Made by a program: the position numbers
Source of the DNA: Deltaproteobacteria bacterium
Lineage (GTDB): Bacteria; Myxococcota_A; Polyangia; Polyangiales; Houyiibacteriaceae
Assembly: GCA_034670305.1 (NCBI GenBank)
Contig: JAXMNT010000005.1
Span: 96,001 to 160,000 of the forward strand
Length of the DNA stretch: 64,000 bases
Reading direction: 5' to 3'
Shown here: positions 31,131 through 34,100 of the stretch, piece by piece
Position numbering within the stretch: the first letter of the stretch is position 1
Layout: each line of letters starts with the position of its first letter

Positions 31131-34100
31131 AGCCGACGCCGACGCCGACTCCGAAGCCGACGCCGACGCCGAAACCGAAACCGCCGCCGACTCCGAAGCC
31201 GACGCCGACGCCGACGCCGAAGCCGAGGCCGACGCCGCCCATCACCGAAAGCCCATTCCCCATGACCCACGTTCTCGATCTCATCGATCGGCTCGCCAAG
31301 CGCGAGGCCGAGTTCGCGCAGCGGCGGTTCCTCGCGCCGTGTGTGCCGGGGGCCAAGCTGCGTGTGCGCATCGATGGACTCGTGCACGAGGTTCGGCCGA
31401 ACCCGGCGGGCTTCGCGGGGTGGGGGGTGTTTCAGGCGATCGACGCGAAGCGCGCGCAGCTCGTGGCGCGTCCGGAAGCGTCGTCGATCGAGCGGTACCT
31501 CGGGGCGCTCGATCTCGTGCGCTTGCACCTCGTCTCGCAGGCGCGCGGTCGCGCGTGGTGGGCGGTGCCCGTCGGCGCGGAGGCGTTGCGGGTGCGGTAC
31601 GGATTGACGGCTCCGGTCGTCGTCCACCTCACGCGGGATGCCACCCAGTTCGAGACGGTGCAGGCACGCTTCGACGGCGCGAACTTCTGGTACGCCGGAC
31701 CGGAGTACCTCGCGGATCCGGTGCTCGCCGAGACCCTTCGCGACGCGCTTCAGACGTGGATCGAAGCGCCTCGGGCAGCGCATCTGACGCCGGAGCTCCT
31801 GCACGCCTACGCGCTCGCGTTTGGCATCCAGGCCGAGGCCCGGGCCAAGAAGCTCGCCGCAGAAGTCGCCGAACGTCGCAAGACGGTCGACGGCCGCATC
31901 GAGCACGCGCTGCACGTCGGTGGCGGCACGCTCATCGGGCACCGCGAGGCGCACGGTGCGCTTCAGGTGGAGTGGCGGGACCGCCACGGCCACCGCCACA
32001 TCAGCACGCTCCGCATGGAGCAGCTCGAGGTCTCCATGGCCGGCGCGGTCTGTCTGCAGGGCCGCGACTCGGACTTCGATCTCACCTCGCTGGTCGGCGT
32101 GCTCTCGCAGGCGCCCGACTACTTCTACGACTGACCCCAAGCCGAGCGGCTGGAAACAACGCCAGCCGCTCGCTCCTTCTCTGCGCCGCACCCGTTCTCT
32201 GTGCCGCGCCCGTCTCTGTGCCGCGCTCGTTCAGGGCCGCGCCCGTCCTGGGCCGCGGCCCGACTGCGCTTACGAAAGCTCGATCCCATGACCTTCCTCT
32301 TCCACGAAAAACTGTTCCGCGGTGCGGATGCGATGACGCGTCTCAAGGACGCGAAGGTCGGGATCTGCGGCGCCGGCGCACTCGGAAGCCACCTCGCGCT
32401 CGGGCTCGCCCGCACGGGCGTCGGCCACCTGCGCGTCATCGACCGCGACCGCGTCGAAGAGCGCAACCTCTCCACCCAGACGTGGTCCCGCGGCGACGTC
32501 GGGGGCCCGAAGGCGAAGTTGCTCGCGCACACGATCTTCCGCGCGGTCGGCACCCAGGTCGATGGCCGCATGAAGGAGCTCACCCGTTCCAACGGGCGCG
32601 CGCTGCTGCGTGGTCTCGACTTGGTGATCGACGTCTTCGACAACAGCGAAGCGCGGGCCGCGGTGCAGCTCGCCGCCGCAGAGCTTCGGATCCCCTGCCT
32701 CCACGCCGGCCTCGCGTCGGACTACGCGGAGTGCGTCTGGGACCCCCACTACACGGTTCCGTCAAACGCGAACGACGACGTCTGCGACTACCCGCTCGCC
32801 CGCAACCTCGCGGTCGTAGCGGCCGCGCTCGCGTCCGAGCTCGCCGTGCGCTTCCTCGCCACCGGCGAGAAGCGCGACCTCGCGCTGACGTTCGGCGACC
32901 TGCGGATCACCTGACCCCGCGTCGGCGTCGGGATCGGGATCGGTTTCGGCGTCGGCGTCGGCGGCGTCGGCTTCGGAGTCGGCTTCGGCTTCGGCGTCGG
33001 CGTCGGCGTCGGCGTCGGCTTCGGAGTCGGCTTCGGCTTCGGCGTCGGCGTCGGCTTCGGCGTCGGCTTCGGCGTCGGCGTCGGCTTCGGCGTCGGCGTC
33101 GGCGTCGGCGTCGGCTTCGGCGTCGGCTTCGGCTTCAGCTTCGGCTTCGGCTTCGGCGTCGGCGTCGGCTTCGGATTCGGCGTCGGCTCCGGCGTCGGAC
33201 GGAACGGCTTCAGCAACAGCAACAGCCGCAGCAACAGCAACAGCTTCAGCCCCAGCAACAGCTTCAGCCCCAGCAACAGCTTCAGCTTCAGCCCCAGCAA
33301 CAGCTTCAGCCGCAGCAACAGCAGCCGCAGCCTTCAGGCACAGCAACAGCCGCAGCCTTCAGTCACAGCAACAGCCGCAGCCGCTCTCACCCGAGCCGGT
33401 TCGCGCCGTCCTCAGTACGTGAGCACGGGGGCGGGCTCGGCGGTGCGCTCCGTGTCTTCCGGCAGGTCCACGTCTTCGACGTCGGCTGCGGGAAGCACCG
33501 GGGCGGCGCTTCGGGCGCAGCGGCTGCTGGCGCTGCAGCTGCCACAGAGGCCACAGGCGACGCGCATGGTCGCGGCCATCGCGAGGACCGCGGCTGCAAG
33601 CGTCAGGGAGAGCTTCGTGAACTTGCCCATCTTCTGCCAGCGCAGCGCGACAACCTGTTTGATGAGTCCGAACGTGCTGGTGGGGCGTGCCATGCGAGAG
33701 AGCCTACAGCCGGACCTTGGGGTCCGCCAGTGCCTGCGCCGTCGGTTTTCGGCCCGCGGATCAGCCGCACCTACTTCGAGGTCGTCCGAAGCGCAGGCCA
33801 CGAAGCACCGCTCAGAAGCTCCCAGCCAAAAGCACCGGCCCCGAAGCCCAGGCTCTCGCTCAGAAGCCGAGCTTGCGCTCGATCGCTTCGACCGCGCGCT
33901 GGGTCTTCTCGTCTTCGCCTTCGAGCAGGCCGGTGATCTTGCGGACGGCGCTGATGACCGTCGTGTGGTCCTTGCCGCCGAAGCGTTCCCCAAGGGCCGG
34001 GTAACTCGTGCCGAGTCGCTCGCGGCACAGGTACATCGCGACCTGCCTCGGGTAGCTCACCGCGCGGTGCCGCTTCTTGCTCTTCAGATCGCTGAGCTTG

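Follow-up and report, generated by a model that had tools for sequence, protein, structure and literature searches.

In the window, a 64,000-nucleotide stretch of a soil-type myxobacterial genome, a period-6 array of the unit NTCGGN occupies positions 32919–33198 of the + strand (47.2 copies with 84% matches in TRF). It begins 4 nt beyond the TGA that closes the gene at 32288–32914. Throughout, the E strand is the one that reads GCCGAN and the R strand, which is the folding strand, the one that reads NTCGGN. The locus is made up as follows.

32288–32914, + strand: ThiF-family gene (PF00899, E 2.1e-29), with its TGA stop just before the tract
32919–33198, + strand: target tract of 47 NTCGGN units, with R, the hairpin-forming strand, running in the same sense as the ThiF-family gene before it
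33207–33382, + strand: second array, of the CAGCAA/CAGCCG type, with a higher order of 24–25 nt (TRF rows 33207–33381 and 33211–33382)
33412–33693, − strand: 93-aa ORF convergent on the tract, with its stop about 30 nt from the second array
33860–35104, − strand: dnaA (TIGR00362, 508 bits against a cut-off of 343.9)

The units of the first array read GTCGGC or TTCGGC on the + strand, and the two arrays together form an R-then-Q composite, the commonest order for this pair (15 cases, versus 4 and 3). The initial annotation had given the tract a span of 32919–33323; its start and the tract itself stand, but 33323 is the end of one TRF row and the boundaries are those of the two arrays listed above. 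The 93-aa ORF has no Pfam or NCBIfam match, and an AsdA match falls inside dnaA at 34679–34759. Because the cumulative GC-skew minimum of the contig lies at dnaA (about C5:128–130 kb), the target tract adjoins the likely replication origin; a DnaA-box scan returned one match, which is not above chance.

Public contigs of four sequencing runs, all from one study, reach into the tract only to 32991 and resume from 33257, a 107-nt contig piece lies at 33158–33264, and no contig of the four runs bridges 32991–33158. The four runs cover both borders at 15–38x, together with 72 and about 125 nt of tract. As contigs enter from both sides, the borders of the tract are independently supported, but its interior length is not.

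Across the genome, 1,375 TRF rows of period 6 merged into 1,158 tracts that cover 145,370 bp, or 1.83% of 7,933,502 bp. The load reported before (1,185 tracts, 174 kb, 2.2%) is of the same order, the merging rules being different, and the CCGANG-type tracts, put at 529 and 98,953 bp, number 609 and cover 101,739 bp in our hands. Strand purity likewise agrees, with 1 of 592 merged tracts of mixed strand where none of 395 had been reported. Period 6 accounts for 1,219 intergenic TRF rows and period 7 for 14. The load had been described as mainly (CCGANG)n; it is real, but it consists of several classes rather than one, and a minority of tracts is coding (112 of the 609 CCGANG-type tracts). Long (GCCGAN)n arrays have a median length of 165 bp; short (GGGCAN)n arms, of which there are about 600, measure exactly 33 nt in 300 of 603 cases and belong in part to MITE-like families; and several further hexamer units occur, including GCGGAA, GCAGCG, CTGATT and others. 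Short C-rich arms follow a gene-specific hairpin in 202 cases, at a median of 27 nt from the stop. When compared with IS630-type MITEs, which have terminal inverted repeats and insert at the TA within CTAG, copies of the A/B arm families were found to end in CTAG, to have similar hairpin ends and often to lie at a TAG stop. About 150 copies of repeat elements are located at contig ends. Tracts and cassette leaders (described below) matched no Rfam family at threshold and gave sub-threshold chance matches only. Loss of mismatch-repair genes was rejected as a cause of the load, as MutS and MutL are both present, in agreement with the initial annotation; SbcD gave a single match of 65.4 bits, below its cut-off of 77.65. 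The window holds the following other tracts.

8619–8653, + strand: C-rich arm of 33–35 nt, (CCCTTG)5.8, 18 nt after a stop
11912–12056, + strand: canonical composite, an (NTCGGN)15 tract with a (GGGCAN) arm behind it, its first base 33 nt past a stop
12423–12694, + strand: coding tract (GAAGCC)45, 87 nt inside the gene at 12336–14636, encoding (Glu-Ala)n after the N-terminus
16059–16247, + strand: (NTCGGN)31 between tandem genes, 2 nt past a stop
19502–19707, + strand: composite of a tract and a G-arm in a divergent intergenic region
27959–28091, + strand: (CGGCTT)20, downstream of a tRNA cluster
30977–31237, + strand: (CGAAGC)43 in a tandem intergenic region, E strand on +
38683–38717, + strand: G-rich arm (AGGGCA)5.8; a − strand gene has its stop 20 nt away
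45244–45466, + strand: (GCCGAA)37 on the right-hand side of the skew minimum, E strand on +

The R-then-arm polarity seen at 11912–12056 recurs in 123 of 190 arm-bearing tracts.

Within the GCCGAN unit, position 6 of the E strand is free (A 50, C 24, T 16–20 and G 7.5%), position 1 is G in 73–78%, and the four core positions are 86–96% fixed, with an equal unit spectrum in gene-linked and unlinked tracts. What is fixed in the unit is the core TCGG, and two positions vary freely. This core pairs with itself through G-T or G-U wobble, so that the NTCGGN strand can fold back in any 6-nt register. RNA folding gave −117 kcal/mol for (GUCGGC)20 versus −34 for the complement, and −185 kcal/mol for the + strand of the target tract versus −53 for its − strand; folding with DNA parameters gave −69.7 and −24.9.

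Tract orientation tracks replication and, independently, transcription. With the leading strand assigned from GC skew alone, 304 tracts have the E strand on the G-rich strand, against 145 of the opposite orientation (p = 4.9e-14), the folding strand being mostly on the other strand, and this share rises with stronger skew (184:78, then 87:34). Genes have no bias to the G-rich strand of the kind that tracts show. On the contig of the window, the prevailing orientation changes over at the skew minimum next to dnaA, from 11 R and 4 E on the left to 5 E and 2 R on the right. Among tandem-region tracts, the R strand is in the sense of the upstream gene in 113 cases versus 57; divided by replication class, the counts are 81 versus 21 for lagging-strand genes and 32 versus 36 for leading-strand genes. 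Both biases are compatible with slippage driven by hairpins. A simple stability model predicts that length should differ by orientation; medians are 164 bp in the favoured and 170 bp in the disfavoured replication orientation (p = 0.96), and the missing difference counts against slippage. These orientation rules, together with the cassette link described below, were absent from the initial annotation and are new here.

Placement relative to genes was determined with our own gene caller (5,920 genes, 5,915 of them with a stop). Of 1,319 non-overlapping tracts, 1,174 are intergenic; 848 of these lie closest to the 3′ end of a gene and 326 closest to a 5′ end. The bias to 3′ ends that had been noted earlier is real: tracts occupy 269 of 873 convergent regions (31%), 336 of 3,090 tandem regions (11%) and 80 of 982 divergent regions (8%), and for gene-unlinked tracts in tandem regions the upstream stop is the nearer gene end in 258 of 313, at a median of 24 nt versus 104 nt to the next start. 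Where the folding strand is in the gene sense, 130 of 371 tracts start 0–19 nt after the stop. A tract starts within 120 nt after the stop of 876 of 5,915 genes when the short 33-nt arms are counted in, against a previous estimate of one gene in ten. Because 8% of divergent regions also bear tracts, the placement looks like tolerance rather than strict aiming at stop codons. Growth from UUCG-loop terminator hairpins was rejected as the main cause of placement, CTTCGG being just 1.5-fold enriched in tract-free 3′ flanks. Stop-codon read-through was also rejected, given that the frame bias after the stop is modest (101:64:59, folding strand in the gene sense).

Most tracts are non-coding, and (Ala-Glu/Asp)n linkers make up about 13–18% of the CCGANG type. 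Of the 609 CCGANG-type tracts, 112 are in the Ala-Glu frame of a called gene, the two remaining frames having 33 and 28. Inside genes the frame is almost always one that combines Ala, Ser, Thr or Pro with Glu or Asp, and the commonest dipeptides of the 145 genic tracts are AE (40), AD (18), AS (17) and ET (10). Descent from former C-terminal tails was rejected: 61 of 162 cases have the Ala-Glu frame in register with the gene before the tract, and this is not in excess. One orthologue pair does have a coding tail in G012, a genome of the same family, where a post-stop tract stands here.

A small multi-copy cassette is closely associated with the tracts. It consists of a leader of about 230 nt, a gene for an Avd-like four-helix-bundle protein (PF05635) and a hairpin, and it is flanked by tracts: of the 47 PF05635 matches, 45 have a period-6 tract no more than 400 bp away, versus 23–26% of control genes. 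Cassette-like sequence was found in 125 of 685 tract-bearing intergenic regions versus 60 of 4,260 tract-free ones, and 82% of the tract-bearing regions are without it. Each cassette subfamily has its own tract type, strand and distance. In subfamilies II and IV, unit and strand are alike on both flanks, subfamily III comes in Q-cassette-R-Q arrangements, and subfamily I has 33-nt inverted arms on its flanks that could form a long stem. Adjacent tract types follow a fixed order (R-G 104, E-P 23, R-Q 15, with the reverse orders rare), which is also the flank architecture of the cassette. The cassette ORFs are 83–100% identical in otherwise unrelated intergenic regions. In one pair whose ORF segments are 100% identical, the upstream arrays measure 197 and 361 bp and differ in unit order; in this pair, copy number has outpaced change in the flanking sequence. 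A tblastn search of plasmids with a cassette protein gave no match. Neither hexamer tracts in myxobacteria nor repeat-flanked PF05635 cassettes are described in the literature that we searched, which did not extend to subscription journals and supplements.

The pattern (CCGANG)5 has 4,778 matches in this genome and 484 for the reversed control, exactly as first reported. A range of 0–23 matches had been given for each of 60 relatives of the order; 59 of the 60 lie at 0–29, but G012 has 359 (control 84). That relatives have almost none of these tracts accordingly holds for the CCGANG unit, G012 apart, and fails for other hexamers, which are abundant elsewhere: (GGGCAN)4 has 458 matches in G004 and 326 in G017, (CAGTGN)4 has 227 in G002 and (GGGANC)4 has 346 in G048, with 2 control matches in each of the last two. 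In G004, modules of a 33-nt arm and a hairpin are clustered. G012, a single 9.07-Mb contig with tracts of like kind, has a tract within 400 bp of 17 of its 20 PF05635 loci, versus 3.8% of 5,000 random windows; within 320 kb of random sequence from this genome, none of 10 tracts was beside the one PF05635 match there. In five further genomes (G002, G057, G013, G048 and G008), 17 of 20 PF05635 loci are flanked by short tandem repeats with private units, and those of G002 and G048 are families found genome-wide. G057 has 32 PF05635 matches and no CCGANG tracts. The link between cassette and repeat therefore extends to seven genomes, this one included, with differing units. As to a common ancestry of tract sites with G012, one cassette locus was compared, and it is not shared at the orthologous place here.

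On balance, these results point to the tracts being dispersed, mostly non-coding microsatellites that probably expanded where they stand, through slippage of a hexamer able to form hairpins, and that persist at sites where additional DNA is nearly harmless. In keeping with this reading, the units are joined head to tail in up to 47–50 copies and their orientation depends on the fork. Arrays would have been seeded at, or together with, PF05635 cassettes, and slippage would then expand and contract them far faster than the cassette itself changes, leaving most of them as solo arrays today. Selection would purge arrays that disturb promoters or reading frames, which may be why the remaining ones sit just after stops. 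The loop of 6 nt is too large for MutS-type repair in E. coli. A period of 6 may be favoured because such loops evade this repair and because reading frames are kept. The same period holds for unrelated units, not all of which fold, so hairpins alone do not explain it, and the 33-nt arms, being of fixed length, do not behave like free microsatellites.

More tentatively, and as a possibility that we would not call probable, the hexamer arrays could be the boundaries of a previously undescribed small mobile cassette (leader, Avd-like gene and hairpin) that is spread across the order. Private hexamers would co-evolve with it, and the arrays would serve as landing pads that are left behind as solo tracts and have run away to 1.8% of the genome here.

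A different emphasis, which we regard as unlikely, has the arrays serve as attachment sites or flanks of a mobile four-helix-bundle cassette, which enters and leaves them when repeats recombine (Campbell-type or gene conversion), with solo arrays as empty sites and the arrays spreading along with the cassette. The same-unit, same-strand flanks of subfamilies II and IV and the Q-cassette-R-Q arrangement of III speak for such a route; solo composites share the order of cassette flanks, ORFs of 83–100% identity recur in unrelated intergenic regions, seven genomes with differing units show the link, and the G012 cassette locus is not shared at the orthologous place here. However, no site was seen with both filled and empty alleles, no recombinase is tied to the cassettes and most arrays are without a cassette remnant. 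Recombination cannot seed sites that are free of arrays, and about 600 arrays are therefore left unexplained by this account.

We are about equally doubtful that the tracts are functional RNA elements of 3′ ends, in which a transcribed NUCGGN hairpin ends transcription or shields the mRNA from 3′ exonucleases, a role proposed for REP elements and for cyanobacterial STRR repeats. The extreme stability of the fold on one strand only would suit such a role, as would the 130 of 371 sense-folding tracts that begin 0–19 nt past the stop, the excess of the folding strand in the gene sense once replication is allowed for (113 versus 57) and the 202 C-rich arms behind a gene-specific hairpin at a median of 27 nt from the stop; the cyanobacterial STRR repeats are also described as hairpin-forming and possibly transcript-stabilizing (PMC2670836). 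Yet one third of tandem-region tracts (57/170) are in the unstructured orientation, tracts occur in 8% of divergent regions as well, the replication bias equals the transcription bias in strength, and coding linkers are built from the same units. At 100–430 bp the arrays are far longer than a terminator needs. They have no U-run behind them, and genuine terminators with a hairpin and a T-run stand upstream of some of them. An intrinsic terminator is a GC-rich hairpin with a U-run behind it, in one orientation only, and the arrays, lacking a T-run and being in the unstructured orientation in 57 of 170 cases, do not fit that description.

Missed coding sequence for dipeptide repeats, (Ala-Glu/Asp)n or, if the complement is read, (Gly-Phe/Val/Ile)n, is a poor candidate that is refuted as a general explanation. 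It would account for the free positions of the unit, one being the third codon position and the other a first position that gives conservative changes, and it draws on the 112 of 609 tracts in the Ala-Glu frame of a called gene (versus 33 and 28), on clear examples in lipoproteins or behind signal peptides and on the post-stop frame bias of 101:64:59 with the folding strand in the gene sense. About 80% of tracts, however, are joined to no gene in the Ala-Glu frame, and at the target the Ala-Glu ORF lacks a recognizable start region and overlaps the ThiF-family gene in antisense for 150 nt. When the Ala-Glu strand is in the gene sense after a stop, the frame preference is absent (61/162); orientation tracks replication, and self-pairing explains the conservation of the core equally well.

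We give very little credence to the addition of degenerate six-base units by a templated or slipping polymerase that works with the Avd-like protein, in the manner of telomerase or a retroelement. It would be in line with the five fixed positions and one free position of every family (GCCGAN, GGGCAN, CAGTGN and GGGANC), with units that are genome-specific and with the resemblance of PF05635 to the accessory protein Avd of diversity-generating retroelements (PMC10053308). A link to reverse transcriptase was nevertheless rejected: the three RVT_1 genes found all score best as ordinary retron type XIII, and only one has a PF05635 gene in its vicinity, at about 4.7 kb. Not all adenines are variable, so mutagenesis of the retroelement type does not fit, and the orientation biases with replication and transcription are not predicted. 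That the long tracts are artefacts of metagenome-bin assembly is scarcely credible: it could appeal to the unbridged 32991–33158 and to the roughly 150 repeat-element copies at contig ends, but both borders of the target are covered at 15–38x in four runs, unit orders are locus-specific, the single-contig G012 (9.07 Mb) has like tracts, and rules of orientation and position could not come from misassembly.

Several known systems share features with the tracts. Enterobacterial REP/BIME elements are imperfect palindromes of about 35 nt, extragenic, present in hundreds of copies, located behind genes or between convergent genes, and paired with a cognate RAYT (IS200/IS605-like) transposase. Like them, the elements here occur as hundreds of extragenic copies behind genes, the modules of arm and hairpin, with their clusters in G004, coming closest; unlike them, they are tandem hexamers, not palindromes, and the long arrays have no REP counterpart. 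CTG and CGG repeats on E. coli plasmids fold on one strand, and their stability depends on fork orientation and transcription. The biases found here appear to run in the direction expected from these plasmid studies, whereas those repeats are experimental or disease loci and the present load is natural and genome-wide, with a 6-nt unit that pairs through G-T/G-U wobble.

The cyanobacterial STRR are dispersed intergenic arrays that can form hairpins and possibly stabilize transcripts; they resemble the tracts in being many, very short in unit, dispersed between genes and lineage-specific, but have a 7-bp unit and belong to another phylum, as against 6 bp and 1.8% of the genome here (PMC2670836). 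Neither the orientation rules nor the PF05635 link is described for STRR in the literature accessible to us. Intervening sequences of 23S rRNA carry an S23p/PF05635 ORF in a small, apparently selfish insert, and the cassettes (not the tracts) resemble them in carrying a PF05635/TIGR02436 ORF within presumed transcribed non-coding sequence (PMC4990558). The rRNA inserts lie in helix 25 or 45 and are removed by RNase III. The cassettes differ in lying between protein-coding genes and not in those helices, and most subfamilies have direct, not inverted, tandem-repeat flanks. The tandem repeats of Borgs are reported to be similarly pervasive, recent, and both intergenic and genic, with the genic ones giving disordered protein regions; Borgs, though, are archaeal extrachromosomal elements, and their units are longer and varied. 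We know of no cassette link for Borg repeats. Diversity-generating retroelements are set apart because no reverse transcriptase of their type lies beside the Avd-like gene (the three RVT_1 genes are of retron type XIII).

Bacterial genomes are usually poor in simple repeats. With its roughly 1,150 hexamer arrays, and with one gene in seven followed by them, this genome is an extreme case for a free-living bacterium. The tracts break short-read assemblies and make gene callers extend or split ORFs, including those with real (Glu-Ala)n linkers in secreted proteins. The link to PF05635 supplies a first genomic context for many stand-alone genes of Avd-like four-helix-bundle proteins, and the genome is a natural setting in which to study the effects of replication and transcription on repeats that form structures.

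The hexanucleotide load of this genome (7.93 Mb in 105 contigs, 68.1% G+C; rpoB matches Polyangiaceae/Polyangiales bins best, with 88% identity over a partial match and 76%) is real and mostly non-coding. TRF returned 1,375 period-6 rows that merge into 1,158 tracts; these cover 1.83% of the genome (145,370 bp), bearing out the genome-wide load described in the initial annotation. Outside called genes, 1,219 rows have period 6, 446 period 12 and 260 period 18, with 14 of period 7. AAGCCG, with 430 rows (74.6 kb), and AAGGGC, with 406 short rows (14.7 kb), are the top families; ACGGGC, AAGCGG, ATCGGC, ACGCCG, AGCGGC and others follow. 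CCGANG-type tracts number 609 and total 101.7 kb (median length 165 bp, 90th percentile 264 bp, maximum 433 bp). MutS and MutL, listed earlier as present, were both found. Public contigs do not bridge the long tracts of this assembly, which is a metagenome bin. The window also holds perfect (100% match) tandem repeats unlike the hexamer families, at 20687–20817 (18 nt × 7.3) and 56108–56171 (15 nt × 4.3), and a cluster of three tRNA genes at 27136–27786 with a (CGGCTT)20 tract after it, at 27959–28079.

The tract reported as the longest lies downstream of a ThiF-family gene, in the following setting.

Features of the target locus (window positions)
32288–32914: ThiF-family gene upstream of the target tract (PF00899, E = 2e-29)
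32919–33198, + strand: target tract, 47 head-to-tail six-base units, GTCGGC/TTCGGC
33207–33382: second array, units CAGCAA/CAGCCG with a 24–25-nt higher order
33860–35104, − strand: dnaA, the next gene past the locus (TIGR00362, 508 bits)

The target tract begins 4 nt past the ThiF-family gene's TGA. Beyond the second array, about 30 nt separate its end from the stop of a convergent 93-aa ORF, for which a family search gave no match. The locus is a composite of an NTCGGN tract (type R) and a CAGCAA/CAGCCG tract (type Q); the end first assigned to it, 33323, is that of a single TRF row, and the repeat itself runs on to 33382. The minimum of the contig's cumulative GC skew falls at dnaA, so this tract adjoins the probable replication origin. 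The probable origin region spans 33860–35900, with a G+C dip to 58–61% at 35000–35800, upstream of dnaA; a DnaA-box scan of the region gave a single near-consensus box (35266), no more than chance, and dnaN was not found after dnaA.

Assembly artefact was one of the rival readings of the arrays. The target locus is present on contigs of four public runs from one study, at 15–38× coverage. These contigs end 72 nt into the tract (32991) and restart at 33257, with an extra 107-nt piece at 33158–33264, and no contig of the four runs bridges 32991–33158. The borders of the target tract are thus independently confirmed, its interior length not so.

On the GCCGAN strand (type E, the complement of type R), position 6 of the unit is free (A 50%, C 24%, T 16–20%, G 7.5%), position 1 is G in 73–78% of units and the remaining four positions are 86–96% fixed, a spectrum that is alike in gene-linked and unlinked tracts. 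On the opposite strand, the fixed TCGG core self-pairs through two G–C and two G–T/G–U pairs, with two free positions between cores. Predicted energies differ sharply between the folding strand and its complement, at −117 versus −34 kcal/mol for (GUCGGC)20 RNA, −185 versus −53 for the target tract as RNA and −69.7 versus −24.9 with DNA parameters. By this modelling, the unit is built round a self-pairing core, and its conservation can be explained by fold-back pairing, with coding not needed.

Coding repeats, a further rival reading, form a minority. Among the three relevant translations at the target tract none is gene-like: the tract would read (Val/Phe/Ile-Gly)n beyond the stop in the phase of the ThiF-family gene, and its opposite strand carries a 194-aa (Ala-Glu/Asp)n ORF with about 150 nt of antisense overlap with that gene. 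Genome-wide, 1,174 of 1,319 non-overlapping tracts are intergenic, and the GCC-GAN frame is open through to the stop of a same-strand called gene in 112 of 609 tracts (33 and 28 in the other frames). The 145 genic tracts lie near the N-terminus (46), in C-terminal tails (22) or internally (77) and encode AE (40), AD (18), AS (17) and ET (10) among their dipeptides; examples read by hand have a lipobox or signal peptide, then (Glu-Ala)n, then the mature protein. Dipeptides and frame together indicate that, within genes, the repeat is retained only in the frame yielding an acidic, disordered linker. One tract of the lipobox or signal-peptide kind (window 12423–12694, 272 bp) begins 87 nt inside gene 12336–14636 as a (Glu-Ala)n linker at the gene start; a cobalamin riboswitch (12092–12255; 53.7 bits, above gathering) lies directly 5′ of this gene. 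Gene-end tracts can sit on either side of a stop codon, as in an orthologue pair whose member in the relative G012 (locus L093, 7925–8413) carries (Ala-Asp/Glu)n in frame as a C-terminal tail and whose counterpart here (C13:84200–84891) has tracts right after a TAG stop. At window 25366–25584, adjoining GGGAGC, CGGCTT and AGGGCA arrays lie inside an ORF called to 26314, the true gene end being doubtful.

Gene ends throughout rest on our own codon-bias caller (5,920 genes, 87% coding). Intergenic regions carry tracts in 269 of 873 cases where the flanking genes converge, 336 of 3,090 where they run in tandem and 80 of 982 where they diverge, and 876 of 5,915 genes are followed by one within 120 nt, short arms counted. 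In tandem regions with tracts not joined to a gene, the block is closer to the upstream stop in 258 of 313 cases (p = 1e-32), at a median of 24 nt from that stop versus 104 nt from the next start, so the reported placement after stop codons holds; the most frequent start is 0–19 nt past the stop in both orientations. Since tracts also occupy 8% of divergent regions and leave a clear gap before the next gene, this placement fits tolerance better than stop-codon targeting.

Two independent orientation biases were found, of the kind expected of hairpin-forming repeats. With repeats masked, local GC skew (±25 kb; the leading strand is inferred from this skew alone) placed the GCCGAN strand on the G-rich strand in 304 versus 145 tracts (p = 4.9e-14), and in 184:78 and 87:34 at higher skew; genes tested for the same orientation bias had none. 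On the contig carrying the target, orientation flips at the skew minimum, from 11 R to 4 E on the left to 2 R to 5 E on the right. Tracts no more than 60 nt from a stop divide 224 to 162 between the two orientations with respect to the nearest upstream gene, which is not a wide difference. In tandem regions, the folding strand lies in the gene sense in 81 cases and in the other orientation in 21 when the upstream gene is on the lagging strand, and in 32 and 36 when it is on the leading strand. The totals are 117:53 for replication and 113:57 for transcription, and this split makes the two biases independent and about equally strong. Both favour a state in which the folding strand avoids the lagging-strand template and coincides with the non-template strand of the upstream gene, the same direction as orientation-dependent repeat instability in Escherichia coli. 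Tract length is alike in both orientations (164 versus 170 bp), which counts against a simple stability model.

Tract types occur in a fixed order. Adjacent pairs run R–G (104), E–P (23), R–Q (15) and R–P (11), with E–P and R–Q reversed in 3–4 cases each, and an arm lies no more than 90 bp from 190 of the 609 long tracts, 123 of which share one polarity, with the NTCGGN tract first, then a short linker and then the G arm. These arms are short (GGGCAN)n arrays, about 600 in all, of which 300 of 603 are exactly 33 nt (six G-runs), matching the textbook G-quadruplex pattern. In two dispersed families of about 120 copies each, the flanks are conserved and a hairpin that finishes in CTAG forms the end; the flanks of the other 356 arms are unique. 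Next to the 3′ side of the G strand of these other arms comes the stop of a gene in the opposite orientation (202 cases, median 27 nt) or the start of a co-oriented gene (127 cases, median 104 nt). The 36 nt beside the arm reach a folding energy of −12 kcal/mol or lower in 43% of cases versus 22% of shuffles. The two families, A and B (about 240 copies, for example C15:131600–132200), often have their 33-nt G-rich arm and CTAG hairpin exactly at a TAG stop, and are the two ends bounding a small element with a PF05635 gene. Of 5,915 stop codons, 1,724 (29%) are TAG. In 150 copies no gene separates the copy from a contig end, which makes this element a cause of breaks in the assembly.

PF05635 (23S_rRNA_IVP; also TIGR02436, four helix bundle protein) is matched 47 times in this genome. 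One report likens the family to the DGR protein Avd (PMC10053308), and another places it in a selfish 23S rRNA insert excised by RNase III (PMC4990558). A period-6 tract lies within 400 bp of 45 of the 47 matches (for comparison, 23% among 1,164 small genes used as controls and 26% among all genes), and a tract of at least 60 bp is near 35 of 47, versus 16–19% of controls. The conserved unit, or cassette, measures about 600–800 bp and comprises a structured leader of about 230 nt, for which an Rfam search gave no family match, an ORF some 100 codons long and a hairpin. Cassette-like sequence is found in 125 of 685 tract-bearing versus 60 of 4,260 tract-free intergenic regions. Flanking arrays are subfamily-specific in unit, strand and distance.

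Arrays flanking the cassette subfamilies
I: upstream, C arm; downstream, G arm
II: upstream, CCGCTT type, about 220–260 nt before the ORF; downstream, CCGCTT type, about 50–70 nt after
III: upstream, GCAGCG type; downstream, CGGCTT tract, 43–45 nt after the match in 7/12 copies, 79–86 nt in two, none called in three
IV: upstream, GCCGAN type; downstream, none or GCCGAN type

Solo tract types follow the same order as these flanks. Array turnover is fast: cassette ORFs are 83–100% identical between copies, and two copies with identical ORF segments have arrays of 197 and 361 bp whose unit orders differ. An approximately 80-nt palindromic insert, another MITE-like family, splits several leaders and one PF05635 gene (C10:56795–57400, C11:27400–29000, C28, C68). 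Three reverse transcriptases score best as retron type XIII (C10:168215–169534, C23:85596–87260, C67:18292–19680), the first directly adjoining two tracts listed in the initial annotation (C10:165811–166173 and 167893–168189).

The (CCGANG)5 count here was reproduced at 4,778 (control 484); the range of 0–23 given for relatives holds nearly as stated for 59 of 60 (0–29) but fails for the same-family genome G012 (one contig of 9.07 Mb), which has 359 (control 84). (GGGCAN)4GGG is frequent in other genera of the family (458 in G004, 326 in G017 and 76 in G030; controls low), with the same stop–hairpin–arm layout in G004. PF05635 copies, counted in relatives that are kin to one another and were sampled partly for this feature, number 42 here, 32 in G057, 30 in G012, 17 in G013, 16 in G002, 15 in G048 and 13 in G008. 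In G012, a period-6 tract lies within 400 bp of 17 of 20 PF05635 loci versus 3.8% of 5,000 random windows (from 16 × 20 kb), and random sequence is 0.55% tract; none of the ten tracts in these 320 kb is beside the single PF05635 hit there, so those tracts are solo. Across G002, G057, G013, G048 and G008, flanking short tandem repeats were present at 17 of 20 loci, a count made without control windows; the other three had none near (nearest 477 nt at L142, about 900 nt at L145, a 20-nt trace only at L146). The unit differs genome by genome.

Units flanking PF05635 genes in five relatives
G002: CAGTGN/GACAGT
G048: AACGGG
G057: CGTGCA, arm pairs, one 7-mer
G013: CCGACT-type mix, 6 and 7 nt
G008: GGATCA

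These private units are genome-wide families: (CAGTGN)4 has 227 matches in G002 (control 2) versus 1, 6 and 2 in three congeners with 6, 0 and 1 PF05635 matches, and (GGGANC)4 has 346 in G048 (control 2), a contrast between genomes that is only suggestive because each pattern was picked from the genome where it is common. PF05635 genes often form convergent pairs about 80–100 bp apart with tandem repeats on the outer sides (L101, L102 and L106 in G012; L137, L138 and L141 in G002; L148–L150 in G013). Short tandem repeats are robustly linked to Avd-like cassettes in several genomes.

Further rival readings take the arrays for RNA elements that function at 3′ ends, for pads at which a mobile cassette recombines or for the product of templated addition. 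We favour slippage as the probable engine of array growth. Period 6 may be favoured because six-nucleotide loops would evade MutS-type repair while reading frames stay intact. The arrays would begin at or with cassettes and mostly outlast them.
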